A stretch of DNA of 64,000 nucleotides from Lewinellaceae bacterium (GCA_020636435.1 JACJXX010000002.1:2722921-2786920), one strand, 5' to 3'; counted from the stretch's first letter, positions 6,068 to 48,947 are shown. Numbers and translations are program-made. The notes: generated from the letters alone by a model not told the origin.

Positions 6068-6115
6068 GTGCGGATGTACGAATACACGAATTCACGGATA
6101 CATGGATGTACGGAT
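6068..6115. repeat. octamer word array, 6 units (GTRCGRAT-like)
   Basis: Reads gtgcggat gtacgaat acacgaat tcacggat acatggat gtacggat, with strict 8-nt period. It abuts the left end of the A1 core. Confidence 0.85.
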
Positions 6116-6330
6116 GAGGGTGCTCCGGAAACTATTGATGGCGAAGAATATTTTGTCCACCCCCTAAATCCTCCCGAAACTCGTTCGGGACAGGCTCCGC
6201 CAGCGGGGGACATTTCCTCCGATTCAGGGGTGTGTTTTCCCCCGCTGGCGGGGGGCAGGGGGTGGAGTCCAAATAAAATTTCCCATTATTGGGCACAGGA
6301 GTTCCAAACTAGACTTTCCGGAGTAGCCTC
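6116..6330. mobile_element. family A palindromic MITE-like core, copy A1 (215 bp)
   Basis: Identical to 18076-18266 apart from 3 substitutions and one 24-nt indel. TIRs are GAGGGTGCTCCGGAAA and GAGGCTACTCCGGAAA (reverse complement). It has an internal 14-bp hairpin CCGCCAGCGGGGGA/TCCCCCGCTGGCGG. Flanking direct repeats are ACGGAT and ACGGGT. Confidence 0.8.
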
Positions 6331-6444
6331 ACGGGTACAGGGGTACACGGGTGCACGGGTGCACGGGTGCACGGGTGCACGGGTACACGGGTACACGGGT
6401 GCACGGGTGCACGGGTACACGGGTACAGGGGTGCACGGGTGCAC
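6330..6444. repeat. octamer tandem array (CACGGGTR) x14
   Basis: 115 bp of strict 8-nt period with two CAGGGGTR variants. It ends one base before the complement of the ZIP gene stop codon at 6445-6447. Confidence 0.95.
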
Positions 6445-9151: not shown

Positions 9152-10540
9152 TTGACACTTATTAAATCTATATCAGGAATCCGGGGCACCATCGGCGGAA
9201 AGGCCGGCGATAATCTGACGCCTCAGGACGTAGTCGAATGCACCGCCGCTTTTGGATACTGGCTGCTGAAAAATGGAGCCCCCGCCAAAGTGGTGGTCGG
9301 CCGTGATGGCCGCATCTCAGGGCCCATGGTAAGCCAGTTGGCCACCGCGGCGCTGATCGGCCTGGGCATCGACGTGGTCGACCTGGGCTTGTCGACCACC
9401 CCAACGGTGGAAATGGCGGTGCCGGCGGAAAAGGCGGGCGCCGGCATCATATTCACGGCCAGCCACAATGCCGCCGACTGGAACGCCCTGAAATTCCTCA
9501 ACCACAAAGGGGAATTCATTTCCCAGGCGGATGGGGAGGCGCTGCTCCGGCTGCTGGAAGAGGGAAATATCGAATATGCCCCGGTGGAGAACCTGGGCAC
9601 CTATCGGCAGGCAGAAGGCTATTTCGAATACCACATCGAAAAAATCCTTGCCCTGCCTTATGTCGATGCGGAAGCGGTGAGGGAGCGTGGATTTAAAGTG
9701 GTGGTCGATTGCATCAACAGCACCGGCGCACTGGCGCTGCCTCCCTTGCTGGAAGCCCTCGGCTGCAAAACCGTGCTGCTCAACGCCGAACCCAACGGCC
9801 GCTTCGCCCACAATCCCGAACCCTTGCCTCAGCACCTGCAGGAACTTTGCCAAACTGTAAAACGCGAACAGGCCGCCCTCGGCGTCGCTGTCGACCCGGA
9901 TGTAGACCGCCTGGCCCTGGTGTGCGAAGACGGGCAGCTCTTCGGTGAAGAATACACCCTGGTGGCCGTTGCGGATTACATCCTTCAGCAAAAAACCGGC
10001 AATACGGTCTCCAACCTTTCTTCCACCCGCGCCCTGCGCGACGTGACCCGCCGGCACGGCGGCGAGTACTACGCCAGCGCCGTGGGGGAGGTGAATGTAG
10101 TGGAGAAAATGAAAGAAATGGGCGCCGTTATCGGCGGGGAAGGCAACGGAGGCGTCATCGTCCCGGGCCTGCACTACGGGCGCGACGCGCTGGCGGGCCT
10201 GGCGATTTTCCTGACGCACCTGGCGCGATTCGGCGGACCGGCCAGCGCCCTGCGGTCTTCTTATCCGGATTATTACATGGTAAAGGACAAAGCTGCCCTG
10301 AAACCGGAGATCGACGTTGCCCGCTTGCTGGAGCAACTGGAAGAACGGTTCAAAAACGAAGACTACAGCACCATCGACGGACTCAAGATCGACTTCGAGC
10401 ACGGCTGGGTGCACCTGCGCAAATCAAATACGGAACCCATCATCCGGATTTACTCGGAAAGCAACAGCCCGGAAGCGGCGCAACAACTGGCCGAACGGAT
10501 GAAAACGGCCATGGAGGAGATATTGGGGGATGATGGATAA
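9152..10540 (+). CDS. glmM: phosphoglucosamine mutase
   Basis: 462 aa with a TTG start. The phosphoserine loop is FTASHNAADWNALKF, and the N-terminus is MTLIKSISGIRGTIGG. Confidence 0.9.
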   Translation: MTLIKSISGIRGTIGGKAGDNLTPQDVVECTAAFGYWLLKNGAPAKVVVGRDGRISGPMVSQLATAALIGLGIDVVDLGLSTTPTVEMAVPAEKAGAGIIFTASHNAADWNALKFLNHKGEFISQADGEALLRLLEEGNIEYAPVENLGTYRQAEGYFEYHIEKILALPYVDAEAVRERGFKVVVDCINSTGALALPPLLEALGCKTVLLNAEPNGRFAHNPEPLPQHLQELCQTVKREQAALGVAVDPDVDRLALVCEDGQLFGEEYTLVAVADYILQQKTGNTVSNLSSTRALRDVTRRHGGEYYASAVGEVNVVEKMKEMGAVIGGEGNGGVIVPGLHYGRDALAGLAIFLTHLARFGGPASALRSSYPDYYMVKDKAALKPEIDVARLLEQLEERFKNEDYSTIDGLKIDFEHGWVHLRKSNTEPIIRIYSESNSPEAAQQLAERMKTAMEEILGDDG

Positions 10541-10598
10541 ATTGTTATATTGCTAAATGGCTAAAGGGTTCCCGCCCACCGGCCCCGCCGAGCATCAG

Positions 10599-10640
10599 CA
10601 ATCGAACAATCGAACAATCTAACAATCTAACCATCCAACC
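10599..10640. repeat. octamer word array (CAATCNAA) x5 ending at a start codon
   Basis: Reads caatcgaa caatcgaa caatctaa caatctaa ccatccaa cc, immediately followed by ATG at 10641. Confidence 0.85.
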
Positions 10641-14928: not shown

Positions 14929-14991
14929 GCTTGCTTTTTTTTCGCCACGAAGGCATCGCGAAGGCTTTGTGTTTTCAGGGTGGCGGCCTAA

Positions 14992-15179
14992 TTCTACTTT
15001 GTTACTTTAACACTGAGACCGCAGATTGTAGGCTGCTCAACTGCTGACCAGCAGTTGAGCAGCCTCTCTGCGTCCACGAATTTGAACCGCAGAGAGCGCT
15101 GGGATACGCAGAGAAAGTGCCGCCCCCCTGCGTCTCTCCGCGTCCCCTGCGGTTAATTTTTTAAAGTAACAAAGTAGTA
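14992..15179. mobile_element. family B element, copy B1
   Basis: Shell TIRs are CTACTTTGTTACTTTAA (14994-15010) and TTAAAGTAACAAAGTAG (15161-15177). CTAA direct repeats lie at 14988-14991 and 15180-15183. The interior carries a perfect 17-bp hairpin, AGGCTGCTCAACTGCTG (15030-15046) with CAGCAGTTGAGCAGCCT (15049-15065). Confidence 0.8.
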
Positions 15180-15275
15180 CTAAATAGTTGCGTTATTTTT
15201 AGAACAACACAACCTTCCAGTAGTTTGGCGCCCTCCACTTTTGGATTTCCTTAACTCCAGTCAGGAAATATTTTT

Positions 15276-15548: not shown

Positions 15549-15580
15549 GTAAATGTGCGAAAGTGTAAACGTGTAAACGT
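15549..15580. repeat. octamer word array (GTAAANGT) x4
   Basis: Reads gtaaatgt gcgaaagt gtaaacgt gtaaacgt. The word is related to the arrays flanking the A2 core at 18015-18047. Confidence 0.75.
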
Positions 15581-15647: not shown

Positions 15648-16298
15648 TCAGAACAGCCCGTGCAACTCCGCCCTCACCTGGTTGAGTATTTCCCCCAGGT
15701 CTTCCGGGTTGTGGATAAAATCCACGTCATCGGCATTGATGACCAGCAGGCGCCCTTCCTTATAATTTCCGATCCAGTTTTCGTAGCGTTGGTTGAGCCG
15801 TTTGAGGTAGTCCAGGCTCATATTGCCCTCGTAGTCGCGGCCGCGGTCCTGAATGTGGGCCACCAGGGTGGGGATGCTGGCCCGCAGGTAGATGAGCAGG
15901 TCGGGCGGCTGGATTTGGGAGGACATGGTCTTGAAGAGCTGAAAGTAGTTCTGAAAATCCCGGGTAGACATCAGCCCCATGTCGTGCAGGTTGGGGGCGA
16001 AGATGTAGGCATCCTCGTAGATGGTTCGGTCCTGCACGACCGTCCGGTCTCCGTTGAGGATTTTGAGCACCTGTTGGTAGCGGCTGTTGAGGAAGAAAAT
16101 CTGGAGGTTAAACGACCAGCGCTGCATGTCGTTATAGAAATCGCTCAGGTAAGGGTTGTCGTCGGTAGATTCGTAATGGACATCCCATCCGAAGTGCTTG
16201 GCCAATTGTTCAGTGAGGGTGGTCTTGCCGGCGCCGATGTTGCCGGCAATGGCTACGTGTTTGACCTTTAGCGTGGAATCTTGTTGAGGCTGGCTCAT
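15648..16298 (-). CDS. deoxynucleoside kinase
   Basis: ATG at 16298 gives MSQPQQDSTLKVKHVAIAGNIGAGKTT (P-loop). The longer track ORF from 16385 starts inside palindrome F. Confidence 0.9.
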   Translation of the reverse strand: MSQPQQDSTLKVKHVAIAGNIGAGKTTLTEQLAKHFGWDVHYESTDDNPYLSDFYNDMQRWSFNLQIFFLNSRYQQVLKILNGDRTVVQDRTIYEDAYIFAPNLHDMGLMSTRDFQNYFQLFKTMSSQIQPPDLLIYLRASIPTLVAHIQDRGRDYEGNMSLDYLKRLNQRYENWIGNYKEGRLLVINADDVDFIHNPEDLGEILNQVRAELHGLF

Positions 16299-16349
16299 AG
16301 TATCGTTTGGTTGTCCGCCACGAAAATATGTTGCCTGGGGGAAAATTTT

Positions 16350-16454
16350 AAACTTTTCTTTAAAAAATAAATCCGACGTCAACAAATGATGGTGAAGGCC
16401 GAAGGTCTGTGAGTGAAGGCCGATCCATCATTTGTTGACTTAAAGTGTCGAATT
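16350..16454. repeat. singleton palindromic element F
   Basis: TTAAAAAATAAATCCGAC..GTCAACAAATGATGG pairs with CCATCATTTGTTGAC..GTCGAATTTATTTTTTAA. The centre carries GAAGGCCGA twice. Confidence 0.75.
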
Positions 16455-16512
16455 TATTTTTTAATCACTATCCAGTGCTAAAGTTTCCTTTTTTGCGCAA
16501 TACCTTTGTTTA

Positions 16513-16667
16513 GGGATGAAAAATAAATAACTGACGCCAATTGCCGTTATCTTTTTCCGTTGGGCGGCGTTATTTTTTCGTTACATCCGTACGGATGCGC
16601 CTCAAAAATGCCTTGCCCAGCGAAAAAATATTTAGGCACTTGGCCCAACTTATTTAATTTTCATCCC
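16513..16667. mobile_element. family C MITE-like element, copy C2 (155 bp)
   Basis: TIRs are GGGATGAAAAATAAATAAC and CTTATTTAATTTTCATCCC (17/19). TTTA direct repeats lie at 16509-16512 and 16668-16671. It ends 39 nt upstream of gatC. Confidence 0.8.
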
Positions 16668-16706
16668 TTTACCGATTAAAACAGGGCAAACATCTAAAAA
16701 TCTGCA

Positions 16707-17000
16707 ATGAAGATAGATAAGCAGTTAATTTCGAAGCTTGAACACCTGGCGCGCCTGGAATTGTCAGATCAGGAAGCCGGGCGCCTGATGGCGGACCTCA
16801 ACAGCATCCTCGAAATGGTCGAAAAACTTCAGGAACTGGATACCTCTGAAACCGAGCCACTGGTGTACATCAATGAAGATGTCAATGTACTCCGGGAAGA
16901 CGCGGTGGCAGGGCAGGTGAGCCGGGAGGATGCCCTGCGCAATGCGCCGGATCAGGCGGGCGGCCACTTCCAGGTGCCGAAAGTCATAGATTTAGGATAA
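16707..17000 (+). CDS. gatC: Asp/Glu-tRNA amidotransferase subunit C
   Basis: 97 aa, with [42 protein letters not shown]. Confidence 0.9.
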
Positions 17001-17017
17001 AACGTAAAACGATTGGC

Positions 17018-17749
17018 ATGAGCGTAATGATCTCCGTTAAAGAATTGACCAAGACCTATATCATGGGCGCAGCTAAAGTGCACGCGCTGCAGGGCGTGTC
17101 GCTGGATATCCAACGCAACGAGTTCGTCGCGCTGATGGGCCCCTCGGGTTCCGGAAAATCCACCTTGATGAACCTGCTGGGCTGCCTCGACACGCCGACC
17201 AGCGGAGCGTACTGGCTCAACGGCATCAATGTAAGCACGATGGAAGACAATGACCTGGCCGAAGTGCGCAACAAAGAGATCGGCTTCATCTTCCAAACTT
17301 TCAACCTGCTGCCCCGGCTCAGCGCACTGGAAAATGTGGCTTTGCCGCTGGTTTACGCAGGAGTGAGCAAAGCCGATCGCCGCGAAAAGGCCATGCAGGT
17401 GCTGGATGCAGTCGGGCTGGGCGACCGGGTAGAACACAAACCCAACGAGCTGTCCGGCGGGCAGCGCCAACGGGTGGCCATCGCCCGCGCCCTGGTCAAC
17501 GACCCCTCCATCATCCTCGCCGATGAGCCCACCGGCAACCTCGACACCAAAACCTCCATCGAGATCATGGGCATCCTGGAGGAAATCCACCGGCAGGGCA
17601 ACACCGTCATCCTGGTCACCCATGAACCGGATATCGCCGAGCACGCCCACCGCGCCGTCCGCCTCCGCGACGGCATGGTGGAAAGCGACGAGATCAATGA
17701 AAATATCATTACGGTGGATGATCCTGAGCATCGGTACAAGCAGGGCTGA
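17018..17749 (+). CDS. ABC transporter ATP-binding protein (MacB/LolD-like)
   Basis: Walker A is GPSGSGKST, the signature is [15 protein letters not shown], and Walker B is IILADEPT. No permease gene is adjacent. Confidence 0.9.
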
Positions 17750-17816
17750 TTCGATTTTTGATTTTCGAAGTGTGACTTTTGATTTGGGAAGTTCGCAAAT
17801 TCCCATTGCCCACTTA

Positions 17817-17975
17817 GGCACGAGGAAAGAATAAAGTGTTCAATTATGGGGCAGTAATTTTTGTGCCAGGCAAGGCGCGAAGAATGAAGATAGCCAAAGC
17901 TACCTGAGTGATGAGCAACGCAGCATGGCGCAAAAAGGACAAGCCAGAATGGACAGTTTATTCTTTCGTCGTGCC
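17817..17975. mobile_element. family I MITE-like element (159 bp)
   Basis: TIRs are GGCACGAGGAAAGAATAAAGTG and CAGTTTATTCTTTCGTCGTGCC (20/22). TTA direct repeats lie at 17814-17816 and 17976-17978. Confidence 0.75.
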
Positions 17976-17986
17976 TTAATAGCATA

Positions 17987-18317
17987 CATACTACTGGACA
18001 TTTTAGGGGCTACCGTGTAAATGTGTGAAAGTGTAAACGTGTAAATGCTTGGGAATCCCGTTCTTTTACACATTTGAGGGTGCTCCGGAAACTATTGATG
18101 GCGAAGAATATTTTGTCCACCCCCTAAATCCCCCGCCAGCGGGGGACATTTCCTCCGATTCAGGGGTGTGTTTTCCCCCGCTGGCGGGGGTCAGGGGGTG
18201 GAGTCCAAATAAAATTTCCCATTATTGGGCACCGGAGTTCCAAGCTAGACTTTCCGGAGTAGCCTCACATTTACGCTCTTACACATTTACACGATCCGGC
18301 AAATGTCCAGTAGTATG
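17987..18317. mobile_element. composite MITE J (331 bp) carrying palindromic octamer arms and a nested A core
   Basis: The 17-bp TIR is perfect: CATACTACTGGACATTT (17987-18003) with AAATGTCCAGTAGTATG (18301-18317). The 9-bp TSD AATAGCATA is perfect, at 17978-17986 and 18318-18326. Confidence 0.9.
18076..18266. mobile_element. family A core, copy A2 (191 bp), nested in J
   Basis: Same sequence as 6116-6330 minus a 24-nt hairpin insert. It is flanked by a perfect 6-bp direct repeat ACATTT (18070-18075 and 18267-18272) within the GTGTAAAT/ACATTTAC octamer arms. Confidence 0.85.
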
Positions 18318-18356
18318 AATAGCATATCCAATCCTTCCCTGCTAACCTCTCTACCA

Positions 18357-18364
18357 TAGATTTG
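18357..18364 (+). promoter_or_regulatory. candidate -7 box TAGATTTG
   Basis: Exact TAnnTTTG match, 31 nt upstream of ATG 18396. Confidence 0.4.
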
Positions 18365-18395
18365 TTATGTTTGCCGGACAACAAACAAAACGACT

Positions 18396-18944
18396 ATGGC
18401 CTTTCGCATTTACACCAAGACAGGAGACCAGGGAGAAACCGGCCTTTTCGGCGGCAAGCGCCTGCCCAAGAGCCACATTCGCATCGATGCCTACGGGACG
18501 GTGGACGAACTGAATTCCTACCTCGGGCTGGTCCGGGATTACAGCGAGAGCGAAACCACCCGCAGCCTGCTCAAAGCGATACAGGACCGCCTGTTCGCCA
18601 TTGGTTCCAACCTGGCTTCCGACCCCGACAAAAATATGGCCGTGCCCGATATCAAGCCAGATGACATCAGCCTGCTGGAAAAAGAGATGGACCGGATGAA
18701 CGAATCCCTGCCGGAGCTTCGGAACTTTATCCTTCCGGGAGGGCACCCTGCCGTTTCTTTTTGCCACATCGCCCGTTGTGTTTGCCGCCGGGCGGAGCGG
18801 CTGGTAGTTGCCCTGGCTCAGCAGGAATGGGTGGCCCCCGTTATTGTGCCGTACCTGAACCGCCTCTCGGATTATCTTTTCCTGTTGGCGCGTCAAATAG
18901 CATTCCAACAGGGAGTGGAAGAAGTAACCTGGGCCCCGCGCTGA
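18396..18944 (+). CDS. ATP:cob(I)alamin adenosyltransferase, PduO type
   Basis: 182 aa. The N-terminus is MAFRIYTKTGDQGETGLFGGKRLPKSHIRIDAYGTVDELNS. Confidence 0.9.
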   Translation: MAFRIYTKTGDQGETGLFGGKRLPKSHIRIDAYGTVDELNSYLGLVRDYSESETTRSLLKAIQDRLFAIGSNLASDPDKNMAVPDIKPDDISLLEKEMDRMNESLPELRNFILPGGHPAVSFCHIARCVCRRAERLVVALAQQEWVAPVIVPYLNRLSDYLFLLARQIAFQQGVEEVTWAPR

Positions 18945-18988
18945 ATTTAAAAGTTGTTTATGCCGGCTATTGTCTATATTTGTATACT

Positions 18989-21100
18989 ATGAGTGCATGG
19001 AGAACGACGATAGAAGGCCTGCCTACCCTGGTAAAATACCTTATGGTCGCAGGAGTAGTGGCCTTCATTACCTTTTTGTTTCCCAATAATGCCAGATTCA
19101 AGTATGAATTTGACAAAGGGCAGCCCTGGCGGTACGAAGACCTCCGGGCGCCGTTTGACTTTGCCATCCGGAAGCCGGCGGAAGAAGTAGATGCCGAGAA
19201 AAATGCCCTGCGGGAAAATTTTACTCCTTTTTACGAACTGAACCTGGAAATCATCAAGGAGAAGAAACGAAGCCTGGCTGCGGAGTTCGACCACCAGTTG
19301 GAGTTGGTCATGGAAGAGGGGCAGTTTGAGGATGTAGTGAAAAAACCGGAGGAATACCTGCAATTTGGCAAGCGCTTTATGGAAAACCTCTTTAAACGCG
19401 GGATTTTACAACTGGCGCCCGAACATGAGGGCAGAGGAGGCGATTTTGTCATCAACGTCGTTCGCGGCAATACGACCCAGCCCCAAACCGTGGACAACCT
19501 GCTGTCGCTGGGAGAGGCCAAAGAATTGTTGAGCGATTCCCTGCCTTACAGCAAACTGGCGGAGCCCGAGTTCCTGTATCCCATCCTGGAAGGGCTGATC
19601 AGCCCCAACCTCACCTACAACGATACCCTGAGCCGGAAGATCATGGAGGAAGAGCTTTCGAAAGTGCCGGTTTACCGCGGCCGGGTCTCCAAAGGGCAAC
19701 TCATCGTGACGAAGGGAGCCTATATTACGGATGATATTTACCAGAAACTGATCTCCTTCCGGGCGCAGTACGAAGAGGAAATCACCAGCAAGCAGTCCTA
19801 TTGGGGAGTGCTCGTGGGATACCTGCTGCTGTCCTCCCTGATCATCGGCATTTTTCTCTTATACGTAAAGCTGTACGCCAGGCCGGTCTTTTCCAGCTTC
19901 AATAAGTTGATCTTCATATTGTTATGGCTGGTTGCCTACAGCTATATCGTTTATGCAGTGGAGCAGGTCGAGGTGTTGAGTACGTACATGATCCCTTTCT
20001 GCATATTGCCGATCGTAATCAAGAACTTTTACAATGAGCGGCTGGCGCTGTTCACCCATTTGGTGGTCGTGCTGTTGGCGAGTTTCCTGTCGAGCTTAGG
20101 GTACGAATTTGCCTTTCTGCAGATTCTGGCGGGCATCGTCGTTTTGCTGAGCGATGTGGAAACCCGGGAGTGGTCCCGTTTTTTCTATTCGATCTTTTTT
20201 ATCTTCCTGGTCTACGCCACCGGCTACCTGGGCTTGTCTCTGATCATAGAAGGCGACGTTATGGATGTGGACTGGACGGAGGTTTACTGGCTGGCGCTCA
20301 GCGCCTTTCTGACGCTTCTGGCCTATCCCCTTATCCCCTTGCTGGAGCGCTTCTTTGGTTTCACCTCCTCGATCACTCTGGTAGAACTGTCGGATATGAA
20401 CCGGCCACTGCTGCGGGAGTTGTCGCTGAAAGCGCCCGGCACCATGCAGCACTCTCTGCAGGTGGCCAACCTGGCGGATGAGGCCGCCCGGAAGATCGGA
20501 GCAAATCCCCTTCTGGTAAAAGTAGCAGCGCTGTACCACGATATTGGCAAAACCCTGAAACCAGAGTATTTTATCGAAAACCAAAGCGGCAAAAACCCCC
20601 ACGATGAACTTTCTGATTTAGAAAGCGCTCAGGTGATCATCAGCCACGTTTCGGAAGGCGTGAAGATGGCTAAAAAGGCCCGCCTGCCGTCTATCCTGGT
20701 CGATTTTATCAAAACCCACCACGGCACCACCCGGACAGAGTACTTCTACCGGAATTATGCCAATAAGCACCCGGATGAAAAGGTGGATGAGCATGATTTT
20801 CAATATCCCGGCCCCAAACCCCGAACCAAAGAAGAGACCATCCTGATGATGGCCGACTCTATAGAGGCTGCCTGCAAGAGCCTGAAAAGCCCTACTGAAG
20901 AAGGGCTCTTTAGCCTGATCGATAAAATCGTAGCCGGCAAGATCACCATGGGCCAGTTCGAGCATTCCAATATGACCTTTGAAGAACTGGAAGAATGCAA
21001 ACAGGTCTTCAAGCAGATGATGAAGTCGGTCCACCACGTGCGCATCGAGTATCCGGAAGAGAAAGCGGAAAAGGAGGAGGAGGAGCCGCAGAAGGGGTAG
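18989..21100 (+). CDS. 7TM-receptor/HDIG-domain phosphohydrolase (PgpH/YqfF-like)
   Basis: ATG at 18989 (MSAWRTTIEG). It has an extracellular N-domain, a multi-TM block, and a C-terminal HD domain with LYHDIGK and THHGT. Confidence 0.85.
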   Translation: MSAWRTTIEGLPTLVKYLMVAGVVAFITFLFPNNARFKYEFDKGQPWRYEDLRAPFDFAIRKPAEEVDAEKNALRENFTPFYELNLEIIKEKKRSLAAEFDHQLELVMEEGQFEDVVKKPEEYLQFGKRFMENLFKRGILQLAPEHEGRGGDFVINVVRGNTTQPQTVDNLLSLGEAKELLSDSLPYSKLAEPEFLYPILEGLISPNLTYNDTLSRKIMEEELSKVPVYRGRVSKGQLIVTKGAYITDDIYQKLISFRAQYEEEITSKQSYWGVLVGYLLLSSLIIGIFLLYVKLYARPVFSSFNKLIFILLWLVAYSYIVYAVEQVEVLSTYMIPFCILPIVIKNFYNERLALFTHLVVVLLASFLSSLGYEFAFLQILAGIVVLLSDVETREWSRFFYSIFFIFLVYATGYLGLSLIIEGDVMDVDWTEVYWLALSAFLTLLAYPLIPLLERFFGFTSSITLVELSDMNRPLLRELSLKAPGTMQHSLQVANLADEAARKIGANPLLVKVAALYHDIGKTLKPEYFIENQSGKNPHDELSDLESAQVIISHVSEGVKMAKKARLPSILVDFIKTHHGTTRTEYFYRNYANKHPDEKVDEHDFQYPGPKPRTKEETILMMADSIEAACKSLKSPTEEGLFSLIDKIVAGKITMGQFEHSNMTFEELEECKQVFKQMMKSVHHVRIEYPEEKAEKEEEEPQKG

Positions 21101-22415: not shown

Positions 22416-22506
22416 TGAAGCCGGAAGTGCGAAGTCGGAAGTCGGAAATAGCCAACGAATGGGCGTTCAGAGCCTGTTTTTCCGCCTTCCGAATTCCGCC
22501 TTCCGC
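22416..22506. repeat. heptamer word-array palindrome M
   Basis: The left arm is gaagccg gaagtgc gaagtcg gaagtcg gaaatag (22416-22450). The right arm is ttccgcc ttccgaa ttccgcc ttccgcc (22479-22506). The arms are approximately complementary. Confidence 0.75.
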
Positions 22507-22676
22507 CTTTGACGCCAGACTGTCCAAGGTCTAGCCTATGAATGTCGCAAAAATAACTCAATTCCCAAAAGAGGCCGTAAGATAACCCCACAAATTCTGG
22601 AAAATGAAACCTACAGGGCAGCCAACGGAATAATATAACAAAAATAAACCGGATTTGGATTGGCCGCGTTCCATAA

Positions 22677-23045: not shown

Positions 23046-23048
23046 TAA

Positions 23049-23428
23049 AACTACTTTCTTACTTTAAAATTTAGCTGGCTTGGGAGCGCGGGCCTCCAGG
23101 CCCGCCAGGGCAATTGCATTTGAATAAAACTGACCTCGAAGAGGTCATATATCTATAGAAAAGGAATGTTTGCCCCTTCGACCTCAAAGAGGTCGTACAA
23201 ATGGACATAAGTACGACCTCTTTGAGGTCGAAAATTCTCATAATCGGTGAATTTCTATAGATATTTGACCCGCTTTGGGGTCAATAACATTTAAATGCGA
23301 TTGCCCTGCCAGGCCCGCGAAGGCTGCCTCAGGCAGCCCTTAAAAGGCAGTTGTTTACTAAAAACCTGCTTCAAGCAGGTTTTCGCGGGCCTGGAGGCCC
23401 GCGCTCCTTTTAAAGTAACAAAGTAGTA
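23049..23428. mobile_element. family B element, copy B2 (380 bp), containing nested element Q
   Basis: Shell TIRs are CTACTTTCTTACTTTAA (23051-23067) and TTAAAGTAACAAAGTAG (23410-23426). The second layer is GGAGCGCGGGCCTCCAGGCCCGC with GCGGGCCTGGAGGCCCGCGCTCC. Outside Q, the interior is collinear with B3. Confidence 0.85.
23106..23308. mobile_element. element Q (203 bp) inserted inside B2
   Basis: TIRs are CAGGGCAATTGCATTTGAAT and ATTTAAATGCGATTGCCCTG (18/20). The 10-bp TSD CCAGGCCCGC is perfect, at 23096-23105 and 23309-23318; B3 has a single copy of this site. Inner layers are a 13-bp perfect palindrome ATATCTATAGAAA/TTTCTATAGATAT and a 22-bp perfect hairpin (23177-23198 with 23211-23232). 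Confidence 0.9.
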
Positions 23429-23440
23429 ATAAATAAATCT

Positions 23441-38027: not shown

Positions 38028-38063
38028 GCATTTCGTTTTTAAAATGTGCCCGGCGAGGCGATC

Positions 38064-38118
38064 GCGCAAAGGCGCGCAGATATGAAGTTCTTGCACCCCA
38101 ACCTCTGCGCCTTTGCGC
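38064..38118. repeat. CTGCG/CGCAG-word palindrome N
   Basis: GCGCAAAGGCGCGCAGA pairs with TCTGCGCCTTTGCGC. The word content is related to the interior of B1. Confidence 0.6.
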
Positions 38119-38156
38119 CTCTGCGTGCCAATCCCCGCAAAGGTATTCAAACATTC

Positions 38157-41216: not shown

Positions 41217-41306
41217 TGCTTTACCTGAAGTAAATAAAACAGTATATTGCGCTTTTGCTCTATCCGAAACAAGCAAATTACCTCATTGTTAAGACAAAAC
41301 CAACTT

Positions 41307-42641
41307 ATGAACAGCATATTGATTATCGGCGCAGGGCGTTCTGCCACTGCATGCATCAAATATGTGCTGGAAAAGGCCAGGGAGCGGAACTGGTTTGTCA
41401 CCGTTGCCGACGCCGACCCTCAACTGGCCGACGCCAAGGTAGCCGGGCACCCCAACGGCCGCGCCACCTGGCTGGATGTACTGAAAGTCAATGACCGGCG
41501 GGAATTGATCGGCCGGGCAGATGTGGTCGTTTCTCTCCTTCCTGCCCACCTTCACCTGGAAGTGGCGCACGACTGCATCAAGCTGAAGAAGCACCTTATC
41601 ACCGCCTCTTACGTTTCCCAGGAAATGTACCGGCTGGGCGACGAAGCCCGCGACCGGGAACTGATTTTCATGGGGGAGATGGGGCTGGATCCCGGCATCG
41701 ACCACATGTCCGCCATGAGGCAGATCGCCCGCATCAAGGCGGAGGGCGGAAAGGTGACTGCCTTCCGCTCCTATACCGGCGGGTTGGTCGCTCCGGAGAG
41801 CGACGACAACCCCTGGAATTATAAATTTACCTGGAATCCACGCAATGTGGTGCTCTCCGGGCAGGGCACCGCTCAGTACCTGGAGGATGGCAAGTTTAGG
41901 TTTATCCCCTATAACCGCCTTTTTGTAGAATACCGCACTGTACAGGTTCCGGGAATGGGCGAGTACGAGGCTTACGCCAACCGGGACTCTCTGCTGTACC
42001 GGGAGGTTTATGGCCTGGCCGGCATCCCGAATATCCTGAGAGGGACCATGCGCACCAAAGGGTTCTGCGAAGCCTGGAATGCGCTGGTCAAGATCGGCCT
42101 GACCGACGGCGGTTACCCGATCGTCGATTCTGACAAGCTGACCTACCACGAATTGATGGAAGGTTACCTCAGCCCGGAAGACAACGCCGGCTCGGTGAAA
42201 GACCGAATCGCCCGGCTGATCGGGGAAGAGCCCGACTCGGTGGTGATGAAAAAGCTGGAATGGCTGGGCCTGTTTCGAAAGAAAAAAGTGCGAATACCCA
42301 ACGCAACGCCGGCTCTGATCCTGGAAAACCTGCTGCTCGATAAATGGAAACTCAAGCCTAAGGACAAGGATATGATCATCATGCAGCACGAATTCGAATA
42401 CGAGTTGCATGGAAAGCTGAAAGAGGTGGTTTCCACCCTGGTGATGAAGGGAGAGGATGGGCAACACACCGCCATGTCGAAACTAGTAGGCCTGCCAATG
42501 GGCATTTTTGTCAAGCTGGTGATGGAAGGCAAGATCACCTCTACGGGCGTCAATATCCCGGTAATGCCTGAGGTGTACGAGCCGGTGCTCGACGAGCTGG
42601 AGCAGTTCGGGGTTGTCTTCTCAGAGCATGAAAAAGCATAG
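41307..42641 (+). CDS. saccharopine dehydrogenase family oxidoreductase
   Basis: ATG at 41307 gives MNSILIIGAGRSATACIKYVLE (Rossmann fold). 444 aa. Confidence 0.85.
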   Translation: MNSILIIGAGRSATACIKYVLEKARERNWFVTVADADPQLADAKVAGHPNGRATWLDVLKVNDRRELIGRADVVVSLLPAHLHLEVAHDCIKLKKHLITASYVSQEMYRLGDEARDRELIFMGEMGLDPGIDHMSAMRQIARIKAEGGKVTAFRSYTGGLVAPESDDNPWNYKFTWNPRNVVLSGQGTAQYLEDGKFRFIPYNRLFVEYRTVQVPGMGEYEAYANRDSLLYREVYGLAGIPNILRGTMRTKGFCEAWNALVKIGLTDGGYPIVDSDKLTYHELMEGYLSPEDNAGSVKDRIARLIGEEPDSVVMKKLEWLGLFRKKKVRIPNATPALILENLLLDKWKLKPKDKDMIIMQHEFEYELHGKLKEVVSTLVMKGEDGQHTAMSKLVGLPMGIFVKLVMEGKITSTGVNIPVMPEVYEPVLDELEQFGVVFSEHEKA

Positions 42642-44064: not shown

Positions 44065-44883
44065 ATGATCCAATACCGCACCCCCAACGTCACCGTCTTC
44101 GAAAGCGCCCTCTACCGCACCACCAGCACCGTTCTTCAGACAGAGGACATTGTGCTTGTCGTAGACCCCAGCTGGTTGCCGGCAGAGGTCAGCCGCATCC
44201 GGCAGTTCGTGCAGGAGAGTCGACGCGGCAGACCTCTGTACCTGCTCTTCACCCATTCCGACTACGACCACATCCTGGGCTGGCAGGCTTTTCCGGAGGC
44301 CACTGCAATCGCTTCCAAAGCCTTTGTCAACAACCCAAACAAGGAAGAAACCCTGGAGCAAATCCGGCAGTTCGATGAGGAGTACTACATCCGCCGAAAT
44401 TACCCCATTGCTTATCCGGAAGTAGACATTGTAATCTCCGAAGACGGGCAGGTAGCTGAGCTGGGGCAGACCCGCATGCGCTTTTTCCCGGCGCCTGGCC
44501 ATACCGCCGACGGCTTGTTTACCCTGGTAGAAAACACCGCCACCTGGATTGCCGGCGATTACCTCAGCAATATGGAGTTCCCTTTTGTTTATGACAGCAG
44601 CCTCGCCTACGAAGAAACATTGCAGAAAGCCCAACGCATCATTGAAGCGTACGAACCCGCCCTGCTCATTCCCGGCCATGGCGATGCTACTTCCCGCCCG
44701 GCTGAAATGCGGTGGCGCTGTACCGAGTCTTTGGAATACCTGCACAACCTCCGGCAAGCCGCCCGCTCCGGCGAGCCGTTTCCCGAGGAGAAACTCTGGA
44801 AGCGCTATGGGAATAAAAGGGGGCTGGCCGGGCCGCATCGGGAAAATTTGGAGTTTGTGAGGAAGGAGATGGAGGGTTCTTGA
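44065..44883 (+). CDS. MBL-fold metallo-hydrolase
   Basis: 272 aa. The metal motif is LLFTHSDYDHILGW, with downstream APGHTADG and PGHG. Confidence 0.8.
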   Translation: MIQYRTPNVTVFESALYRTTSTVLQTEDIVLVVDPSWLPAEVSRIRQFVQESRRGRPLYLLFTHSDYDHILGWQAFPEATAIASKAFVNNPNKEETLEQIRQFDEEYYIRRNYPIAYPEVDIVISEDGQVAELGQTRMRFFPAPGHTADGLFTLVENTATWIAGDYLSNMEFPFVYDSSLAYEETLQKAQRIIEAYEPALLIPGHGDATSRPAEMRWRCTESLEYLHNLRQAARSGEPFPEEKLWKRYGNKRGLAGPHRENLEFVRKEMEGS

Positions 44884-44948
44884 GCTCCCGGAATGTCTTT
44901 ACATAGCAGCTTTGCCTACCCAATCAACTAATTTTACCAGGCTCATAG

Positions 44949-45124
44949 TTCTACTTTGTTAACTTAACAGGAGCGCGGACCTCCAGGTCCGCGAAGGCTG
45001 CCTTTGGCAGCCCTTTAAAAGGCAATATCGTACTAAAAACCTGCTTCAAGCAGGTTTACGCGGACCTGGAGGTCCGCGCTCCAGGCTCTCCGGCCATGCG
45101 GAATTTTAAGTTGACAAAGTAGAA
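44949..45124. mobile_element. family B element, copy B3 (176 bp)
   Basis: TIRs are TTCTACTTTGTTAACTTAA and TTAAGTTGACAAAGTAGAA. The 4-bp TSD ATAG is perfect, at 44945-44948 and 45125-45128. The interior is collinear with B2 minus element Q. Confidence 0.85.
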
Positions 45125-45139
45125 ATAGAGACGGTCAAC

Positions 45140-46183
45140 TTATTCAACCAACCCACTAACCCCCATCAAATTCCCCAACCTATAAGCCAGCAACGCCCCC
45201 GCCTGCCCATCCCGGGCGTGTCCCAGTCCGGCTACCCCGCACAGGCCGAAACCGATGATCTCCAATTCTGCATCCAGCAGGCGTTTGACGAGGTATAGGG
45301 CTTCCTCGATCTCAAAGCCGCCGGGCATGGTGTGGGAAGCATTGGGGCCGTATTGAGGTTTCAGGGCGTCGATGTCGAAACTGAGGTATACCCGATCGGG
45401 CAGGCCGCGGATGATGTCGCCGCAGATTTGGCTGAAGGCATGGCCCCGGTAGAGGCGGCGGCGGATGTCATGATCGTGGAAAACGGAGATGTGCTCCCGG
45501 CTGTGGGCCGTTTTTTCTTCCTGCGGGAAAGCGCAGCGGATGCCGGCCAGGGAGAGCTGTTTCAGGCTATCGAAGTGCAGGGCATGAGCAAACAGGGTTT
45601 CCGGAGAACAAGCCGGGCCGGGCCAGGAAGCATTCAACCCCATGCGGGCGCCGAGGTGCAGAATGCCGAACTCCGTGTACCGCTCGGCCAGCGCCTGCAG
45701 CAGGCCCAATTGGGCGCTGCTGTCTCCTCCGATGAGGCCTACCCGTTTTTTCTGATCCAGCAGAGCATTGGCCTCCTGTTTGAGCCATTTTTGCAAAACG
45801 GCAATTTCTTTGTCGATCTCTTCGAAAGAAGTTTGTACATAACCGTCTTTGGGGGAGGCTTTTCCGTTTTCAGCAAAAAGAGTGACGGACGCCGTTTTTT
45901 CCAGAAGTTGGCGGCACCGCTCCGCCATAGGCTCTTCGGGCAGCCGCAGGCACAGGCCAGCCTGCGGCGCATCCGGGTCGTAGGGAGACAGGAGGTAAGA
46001 AGCCTCCAGGATGTTGGCGGCGGCGGTTGAGGCGTTGCTGTCCAAATGGATGCCGCTGCCCCAGGGGGCGGAAAGCAGCACCACTTCCGCTTCTGCTTCG
46101 GTAAAGGGCAGGCCCATGAAGTGGCCGTTGCGTTGGCGGGGCGCGTCGGGGTTGAATTTTCCGGCCTTCTCGGCTTTGTTCAT
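45140..46183 (-). CDS. arginase-fold, agmatinase-like protein lacking four of six Mn ligands
   Basis: ATG at 46183 (MNKAEKAGKFNPD...). It reads GGDSS where the family has GGDHS. Exactly 23-27 residues later it reads GARMG where DAHxD is expected. SFDID is retained. Confidence 0.8.
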   Translation of the reverse strand: MNKAEKAGKFNPDAPRQRNGHFMGLPFTEAEAEVVLLSAPWGSGIHLDSNASTAAANILEASYLLSPYDPDAPQAGLCLRLPEEPMAERCRQLLEKTASVTLFAENGKASPKDGYVQTSFEEIDKEIAVLQKWLKQEANALLDQKKRVGLIGGDSSAQLGLLQALAERYTEFGILHLGARMGLNASWPGPACSPETLFAHALHFDSLKQLSLAGIRCAFPQEEKTAHSREHISVFHDHDIRRRLYRGHAFSQICGDIIRGLPDRVYLSFDIDALKPQYGPNASHTMPGGFEIEEALYLVKRLLDAELEIIGFGLCGVAGLGHARDGQAGALLAYRLGNLMGVSGLVE

Positions 46184-47533: not shown

Positions 47534-47589
47534 CAGTGTATCAGTGTATCAGTGTTGCAGTGTATCAGTGTATCAGTGTTGCAATGTTC
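47534..47589. repeat. octamer word array (CAGTGTWK) x7
   Basis: Reads cagtgtat cagtgtat cagtgttg cagtgtat cagtgtat cagtgttg caatgttc, which is also a 24-nt higher-order repeat x2. It lies between the dehydrogenase stop and the decarboxylase start. Confidence 0.9.
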
Positions 47590-48756: not shown

Positions 48757-48947
48757 CCTCGTGTCGCGATCATCCTTGCCTCCGCAGGCAGAAGCCTGCC
48801 AGTGCAGGCGAAGGCCTGATCGCAAGATCGCAAGACAGTACGCGAAGTTACTTCGTTGCCGGGCTCTTTGTTGACAGTTGTTCGTTGTTTGTTGCCCGAG
48901 CGGTTGGGGTTGTCGAACCAACAACCAACAACAACCAACAAACAACC
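48757..48947. repeat. composite palindromic word region P
   Basis: It starts with CCTCGTGTCGCGATCATCCT, the same word as the ribB 3' end at 32086. It then has GATCGCAA x2, followed by a GTTGTT-word arm (48867-48894) facing a CAACAA-word arm (48916-48947). Confidence 0.7.

Follow-up and report, generated by a model that had tools for sequence, protein, structure and literature searches.

We have identified a 331-bp element, J, that is very probably a non-autonomous MITE of an IS4-family IS widespread in Saprospiraceae, Lewinellaceae and Haliscomenobacter, and that carries a second, foldback element nested within it. A first-pass annotation, made from the sequence alone, had read J as a MITE, and our analysis agrees: J has TIRs and a target-site duplication (TSD) of fixed 9-bp length, is small and non-coding, is multi-copy in relatives and has an IS partner.

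All of the coordinates and sequences given in the first-pass annotation for perfect 17-bp TIRs and a 9-bp TSD around 331 bp were reproduced (Table 1). The two TIRs of J match perfectly (17/17), and the inverted repeat ends at 17 bp with a mismatch at position 18. A longer, 20-nt arm was considered and rejected, as the extra length reflects the partly palindromic duplication. Within the window (the whole 64-kb stretch of DNA that was analysed), the TIR has just two matches at three or fewer mismatches, compared with 0.06 expected in shuffles, and the duplicated 9-mer occurs exactly twice, with each copy abutting a TIR of J. An exact 17-nt inverted pair no more than 800 bp apart is expected ~0.006 times per 64 kb, and for such a pair together with an abutting 9-bp direct repeat the rough expectation is ~2e-8 per window. 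Searches of the window for degenerate copies of the TIR (five or fewer mismatches, and also a 10-mer core) returned chance-level matches only; thus, J's TIR does not border any of the other octamer arrays there.

Table 1. Anatomy of element J and its flanking duplication, in window coordinates.
Feature	Position	Strand	Remarks
TSD, left copy, AATAGCATA	17978..17986	.	one of two window copies; 9 bp is the family rule
Left TIR, CATACTACTGGACATTT	17987..18003	+	identical to the right end of the 1195-bp IS in L078 and to ends of 69 short elements
Left subterminal spacer, TAGGGGCTACC	18004..18014	+	no pairing with the right spacer; partly conserved in L114
Left-arm array, four octamers GTGTAAAT GTGTGAAA GTGTAAAC GTGTAAAT	18015..18046	+	TRF period 8; 1 difference in 31 nt relative to L114
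Central loop with small hairpin, GCTTGGGAATCCCGTTC	18047..18063	+	variable region relative to L114
Right-arm array part a, TTTTACAC ATT	18064..18074	+	last 4 nt, CATT (18071-18074), are the left flanking repeat of the nested element
Nested foldback element, TGAGGG...CCTCA ("A2 core" of the first-pass annotation)	18075..18267	+	own imperfect 17-bp TIRs at 18075-18091 and 18251-18267
Right-arm array part b, CATT TACGC TCTTACAC ATTTACAC G	18268..18293	+	TRF period 8; first 4 nt, CATT, are the right flanking repeat of the nested element
Right subterminal spacer, ATCCGGC	18294..18300	+	read from sequence
Right TIR, AAATGTCCAGTAGTATG on the + strand	18301..18317	-	exact reverse complement of the left TIR
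TSD, right copy, AATAGCATA	18318..18326	.	abuts the right TIR

J was stated to have no coding capacity, which is consistent with the absence of any Pfam match at E ≤ 1 for its two ORFs (89 aa and 57 aa) and with a tblastn search of the 64-kb window using the 372-aa transposase described below, in which no homologue was found. As single-stranded DNA, J has a predicted fold of -91.9 kcal/mol, with a z-score of -12 relative to shuffles. Rfam gave nothing for J at the gathering score, and only sub-threshold chance matches in E-value mode. Scans for sigma-70 promoter and intrinsic-terminator consensus elements gave counts no higher than those in shuffles, and no terminator-like T-run was found in J by the scan. 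REP/BIME-type palindromes are ~20-40 nt long and imperfect, have neither TIRs nor duplications, and are linked to a RAYT (Y1) transposase. J falls outside this class, given its TIRs, its 9-bp duplication and a partner that is a DDE enzyme.

The arms of J had been described as octamer arrays that mirror each other, and TRF recovered period-8 arrays in both, at 18015-18045 (3.9 copies) and 18266-18292 (3.4 copies), that are mutually inverted. Part b of the right-arm array is inverted with respect to 18014-18041, with 86% complementarity. The right arm had also been described as interrupted by a core sequence, an interpretation strengthened by the presence of a second copy of that core at 6115-6331 and by the restoration of four octamers upon its excision. 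Removal of 18075-18267 and one CATT leaves a 134-bp backbone, the right arm of which reads TTTTACAC ATTTACGC TCTTACAC ATTTACAC, in register with the four octamers of the left arm. In this backbone, the TIRs and short spacers enclose two arms of four GTGTAAAT-type octamers each, mutually inverted, around a 17-nt loop.

The J backbone aligns through TIR, spacer and arrays with a homologue of 172 bp from a Phaeodactylibacter MAG (L114:7769-7940). The homologue has its own duplication, GCGATAGGC, and is devoid of the nested element. Besides the TIRs, the arrays are the best-conserved part between J and this homologue. Since the homologue possesses the arrays without the nested element, the arrays are inherited parts of J's MITE subfamily rather than a product of this locus, and the 193-bp element was inserted later. 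Smaller relatives were also found, namely a 75-bp deletion derivative in a Lewinellaceae MAG (L036) and, in the window, a TIR-less fragment of a J-type arm at 15549-15577 (28/29 nt). The copies of J visible within the 64 kb are thereby one intact element and one arm fragment.

A second J-like left arm is present at L009:600-760, where it reads GTGTAAAA GTGTAAGG GTATAAAT GTGTAAAA, followed by a loop and ATTTACAC GTTTACGC GTT. It has a degenerate end, CAAACTA..CTGGATATTT, and is joined to J's right side via an identical nested element, which starts at about position 735 of L009. L009 is either a chimeric assembly that brings in another J-type copy of the same population or a real recombinant, and a second J-type copy is accordingly possible there. 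With its different J-like arm, it was rejected as uninterpretable when considered as an alternative left flank of J.

The nested foldback element is 193-217 bp in length with ends TGAGGGTGCTCCGGAAA ... TTTCCGGAGTAGCCTCA, and the two window copies differ by four substitutions and one 24-bp indel. It folds as a near-perfect foldback (RNA fold z-score of -9.6). In J it is flanked by identical CATT repeats, and the copy at 6115 has CGGA and CGGG as its flanks. Six metagenome contigs that encode a PduO protein identical to that of the window (L001, L002, L004, L005, L007 and L008) end inside the nested element, which shows that it is multi-copy. In JGI metagenomes, a 20-mer of the element had one match, unrelated and due to chance. 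A 28-mer was unmatched in IMG/VR, blastn found no copy in 120 fetched loci, and no Rfam match was obtained. Three left junctions of the nested element are known (the two window copies and L009). All three lie inside period-8 arrays, in the same unit phase, 3 nt past a ...YAC or ...YGC unit end, which suggests that the element targets such arrays. The converse idea, that the arrays are transposition footprints of the nested element, was rejected, as L114 has the same arrays without it.

The window contains other repeats of interest. A 159-bp hairpin element at 17817-17975 (within 17814-17978) has imperfect inverted ends of 26-27 nt, GGCACGAGGAAAGAATAAAGTGTTCA..., and TTA/TTA flanks. It directly adjoins J's target duplication, was seen in one copy, and may be a further MITE, one that makes a 3-bp duplication. 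Three copies of another TIR-bounded element, with ends approximating TAnTTCTACTTTGTTACTTTAA and GC-rich internal palindromes, occur at 14989-15186, 23046-23435 and 44946-45131. The orthologous spacer of a Lewinellaceae MAG (L142) has just 66 bp in place of 44873-45183, which marks the latter as an insertion. Intergenic arrays of 7-8-bp units were noted at 6071-6116, 6330-6444, 10533-10639, 22417-22509, 38063-38125, 47534-47587 and 48818-48947. Each has a different unit, they often form inverted pairs that would fold into hairpins, and none has a J-type TIR. The orthologous spacers of L142 are short and free of these arrays. At 47534, (CAGTGTAT)x6 corresponds to a single GCAGTGTATCA in L142; hence, this array would have expanded locally.

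The family to which J belongs was delimited by an exact 17-mer scan of one genome per bacterial species (596 Gb). Among the matches listed, the 17-mer was found in at least 120 stretches from ~60 species-representative assemblies. The carriers among these matches are all Bacteroidota except for three, and mostly Saprospiraceae, Lewinellaceae, Haliscomenobacter, Neolewinella, Phaeodactylibacter and Lewinella. The three exceptions (Planctomycetota, Bacilli and Anaerolineae) are single, unpaired matches and were taken as chance, ~70 chance matches being calculated for a 17-mer in 596 Gb. Five matches in viral contigs, which lie in one conserved phage region without a partner repeat, were likewise dismissed as chance. 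Short elements were called where an exact 17-mer at one end was paired with a partner end at three or fewer mismatches. This gave at least 69 TIR-bounded elements of 75-471 bp among the matches listed, with length modes of ~91, 103 and 132 bp, the apparent invariance of their ends being partly a matter of ascertainment through the exact 17-mer.

The flanking repeats of these 69 short elements are perfect at exactly 9 bp in 33 cases and have one mismatch in 14 more. Perfect flanks at 10-12 bp, or with the right flank shifted by 1, 2, 3 or 20 bases, were found in none of the 69. All 33 perfect duplications are distinct in sequence. The duplicated sites show a weak palindromic bias, in which T is absent from position 1 and A is scarce at position 9, with an excess of T at position 2 and of A at position 8. 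Several copies with differing duplications, inserted at unrelated sites, were seen both across the ~60 related species genomes and within single MAGs, such as EUL_115, which has at least eight copies of a 101-104-bp subfamily. The first-pass annotation had proposed a search for further copies of the TIR and for different 9-bp duplications at those copies, and both were found in related genomes. Shared ends combined with varied 9-bp duplications read as the signature of transposition.

The interiors of the family are diverse. Across loci L011-L130 (for example, L046, L011, L032, L121, L093, L042 and L061), one 17-bp end is associated with dozens of unrelated, mostly palindromic interiors. One group consists of related hairpins, AGACCTATAAGGTTT, AGACTTTCCAAGTTT, AGACCTTCCAGGTTT and AAACCTTCCAGGTCT, in which the changes between stems are paired. 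In another, the arms are built of short-period arrays (CACAACGN, CACAGAT.., CGCAAAGN and AGAGNAG).

A candidate autonomous partner emerged from the unpaired 17-mer matches. Many of these are located k-1 bases away from the end of a contig, as is usual for repeats that exceed the assembly k-mer in length, and their subterminal sequence matches that of the two ends of one complete element at L078:5875-7069. This IS is 1195 bp long, and its right end is exactly J's 17-mer. Its two ends have ~25 bp in common (CAYACTACTRGACATTTTTGAAAAG) and are free of arrays. A single ORF of 372 aa runs into the right repeat and encodes a transposase that matches Pfam DDE_Tnp_1 at 61.4 bits (cut-off of 23). The best NCBIfam model, NF033591 (IS4-family transpos_IS4_2), scores 147.9 bits, which is under its cut-off of 152, and the next model scores 51.5. 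At E ≤ 1e-20 there are 407 homologues, nearly all of which are 372 aa in length, and many of these lie on contigs of ~1195 bp that represent the IS assembled alone. A PDB sequence search with the transposase detected no homologue.

Fifteen homologues with identities down to 50% were aligned, and all share D100, D164 and E269 as well as Y262-x2-R265-x3-E269-x6-K276, which constitutes a complete YREK motif. The Y-(2)-R-(3)-E-(6)-K motif sets the IS4 family apart from IS701, ISH3 and IS1634 (PMC2266710). The 9-bp duplication also lies within the IS4-family range (8-13 bp, or about one helical turn, rather than 4-6 bp). Two homologues (66% and 54-57% identical) were located in a total of ten genomic insertions, each 1194-1195 bp long with the same ends, and seven of the ten have perfect 9-bp duplications. 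Transposase fragments abutting the TIR were found at nine or more further loci. Copies of the IS and of the MITE occur together in the same MAGs, including GFS_9293, GFS_13524 and bins.310. The nearest annotated relatives are plasmid-borne and 30-37% identical (Spirosoma and Persicobacter transposases and an ISLpn9-like transposase). The transposase gene flanked by the same TIR that the first-pass annotation had advised looking for, with producers of 9-bp duplications as first candidates, was thereby located in relatives, and it is of the IS4 family. On these sequence comparisons, the 372-aa IS4-type transposase is the likely mobiliser of J in trans. The interior of J has no similarity to the interior or subterminal regions of the IS, and J is therefore not a simple internal-deletion derivative.

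J is bordered by two housekeeping genes of the + strand, one for an ABC-type ATPase (17018-17749) and the other for a PduO-type cob(I)alamin adenosyltransferase (18396-18944; PF01923), and the spacer that contains it is 646 bp long. Mobile palindromes, stacked or nested, fill ~500 of these 646 bp, as compared with entire spacers of 122-211 bp in relatives. A saccharopine dehydrogenase encoded in the window (41238-42638) is 92% identical to a Lewinellaceae MAG protein and 82% identical to a Phaeodactylibacter protein; the window organism belongs to the same lineage as the carriers of the 17-bp-end family. TAnnTTTG is the Bacteroidota -7 promoter consensus. Two such boxes (TAGATTTG and TATGTTTG) are present at 18357-18373, 23-39 bp upstream of the PduO start and 31 bp downstream of J, in a segment that is conserved in two allelic contigs, L003 and L010. 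TAnnTTTG is not found in the window above the chance count, and the two boxes would be putative promoter elements of PduO.

Further metagenome contigs with an identical PduO protein were compared with the window at this locus. L006 carries J unchanged and is 100% identical over 1707 bp. L003 and L010 are free of J and have unrelated spacers of 211 and 122 bp, respectively. The pattern named in the first-pass annotation as contrary to a MITE, in which relatives have AATAGCATA already doubled with no element, was not seen in L003 and L010, neither of which contains any AATAGCATA. Compared with window positions 16100-19100, these two contigs show 99.1-99.7% identity on the right-hand side of 18332 or 18344, and just 83-84% in the ABC-ATPase gene on the left. 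This break in identity beside J points to an inter-lineage recombination breakpoint or an assembly join. Because their spacers are entirely different and cannot be aligned with that of the window, L003 and L010 are best regarded as alternative alleles and not as a base-precise empty site. The spacer of L010 is itself a period-8 palindrome (GGAATGA / TCATTCC units). The empty site is predicted to read ...GTGCCTT-AATAGCATA-TCCAATCC..., with J absent, and a 25-mer spanning it, CGTGCCTTAATAGCATATCCAATCC, had no match in JGI metagenomes.

We hypothesize the following history for J. The 17-bp termini would be the recognition ends for the 372-aa DDE transposase of the 1194-1195-bp IS. The transposase, supplied in trans, would excise J and integrate it into a target cut with a 9-bp stagger, and repair of that cut would yield the AATAGCATA duplication. 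Tn5 and Tn10, which belong to the same IS4 family, are known biochemically to move by cut-and-paste via hairpins at the transposon ends, and by analogy J may be moved by the same chemistry. J would have landed in the ABC-ATPase/PduO spacer, 31 bp upstream of a TAnnTTTG box. The 193-bp foldback element later entered the first octamer of J's right arm, duplicating CATT. The perfection of both the TIRs and the duplication indicates that the insertion of J is recent. The anatomy of J, its place in the family as judged from ends and duplication length, the association of these ends with the transposase, and the nested insertion are shown by the data; that J is mobilised in trans in its own host, the catalytic mechanism and possible effects on adjacent genes are features that we infer.

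A broader reading of the same data is that the IS4-type ends act as a portable frame that gains unrelated palindromic modules, together with a foldback element that targets the arrays. J would then be part of a lineage-specific system that generates arrays, mobilises them and provides landing pads, possibly with a structural or regulatory role, and would not be a plain MITE. We regard this extension as rather unlikely. Within it, the 17-bp ends may repeatedly pick up, or be colonised by, unrelated palindromic modules in this lineage. These modules include inverted arrays built of 7-8-bp units, with a unit sequence that varies by subfamily.

Mobilisation of J as a MITE by the IS4-type transposase was also weighed against movement by another enzyme, for example one that reads the octamer arrays as multiple binding sites in the manner of foldback, Tn7 or Mu-like ends. 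Conservation of the arrays between J and L114, second only to that of the TIRs, and the occurrence of short-period arrays in the arms of several subfamilies would fit such an enzyme. However, the array units differ completely among subfamilies that have the same 17-bp ends, and many members have no arrays at all. J also matches the IS exactly in its ends and duplication length, and the ends of the full-length IS are array-free. We consider this alternative very unlikely.

J could instead have arisen on the spot, from a full-length IS that inserted here and then shed its internal part, without ever having moved as a short element, and its ends and 9-bp duplication are indeed those of the 1.2-kb IS. 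An in-place remnant would be at odds with the interior of J, which is unlike that of the IS or its subterminal regions, and with the existence of a homologous short element, L114, at another locus in another genome with its own 9-bp duplication. A truncated J-type arm is also present at 15549-15577. Such an origin is extremely improbable. Finally, the very strong single-strand fold of J and its position between two co-directional genes might suggest a native, non-mobile structured element (a terminator, regulatory hairpin or small RNA gene) with an incidental flanking repeat, but this is almost certainly not the case, given the lack of an Rfam match or terminator-like T-run, the same ends at many unrelated loci with differing 9-bp duplications, and the allelic contigs without J. 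A secondary, exapted role may nevertheless have been acquired by J as a MITE.

J's family and its 1.2-kb IS are of practical relevance for annotation and assembly. Both are abundant in Saprospiraceae and Lewinellaceae, bacteria that are frequently encountered in metagenomes from activated sludge and aquatic habitats. The family breaks short-read assemblies, with contigs that extend just k-1 bases into the IS or stop within the nested element, and it can cause chimeric joins, of which L009 is a likely case. The lineage is well suited to the study of how MITEs remodel promoter-proximal DNA. In addition, exact 17-bp ends, a small transposase and a weakly palindromic 9-bp target offer a compact test of the minimal needs of an IS4-type transposase for moving foreign DNA.

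No description of this MITE family or of its IS was found in the searchable literature. J and its IS are apparently undescribed, and the element type itself is known. The partner IS is like the IS4 family in having a single DDE_Tnp_1 transposase, a complete YREK motif, short TIRs that start with 5'-CA, a length of 1194-1195 bp and a 9-bp duplication. It is unlike the named IS4 members in that its nearest annotated relatives are just 30-37% identical and its NCBIfam score is 4 bits under the cut-off. IS10 and ISAba1 are familiar IS4-family examples with 9-bp duplications. The IS10 subgroup is characterized by lengths of 1200-1350 bp, 9-bp repeats and CT ends, and the IS4Sa subgroup by lengths of 1150-1750 bp, ends of the form CA------T and repeats of 8-10 bp (PMC2266710 Table 1). 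By its size, 5'-CA ends and duplication length, the partner IS would be placed closest to the IS4Sa subgroup.

Within the IS4 family, a parallel to J's family is provided by MIC231, an IS231-derived element of Bacillus cereus in which IS4-family ends surround heterologous, transposase-less DNA that is mobilised in trans. MIC231 elements are kilobase-sized cassettes that carry genes, with different cargos within one pair of ends. J's family is similar in that IS4-family ends frame foreign, transposase-less DNA, and one end is associated with different cargos. It is dissimilar in that its members are 75-471 bp long, non-coding and mostly palindromic, as opposed to kilobase gene-bearing cassettes. 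Inverted arrays of short tandem units and elements within elements are known from eukaryotic Foldback elements and nested plant MITEs. J resembles these in architecture only, with its inverted-array arms and element-in-element structure, and differs from them in kingdom and transposase superfamily.

The closest likeness in overall form is to bacterial MITEs, which are short, non-coding, TIR-bounded, multi-copy and intergenic, with target-site duplications (PMC3184786), as is J. A MITE of Porphyromonas gingivalis contains a minisatellite (PMC4596501), and this serves as a precedent within the Bacteroidota for the tandem repeats inside J. Relative to the P. gingivalis element and other bacterial MITEs, J is distinguished by its own ends, duplication length and partner IS. 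Compared with the P. gingivalis MITE in particular, J has 8-bp units set in inverted arrays on both arms and a second element nested inside.
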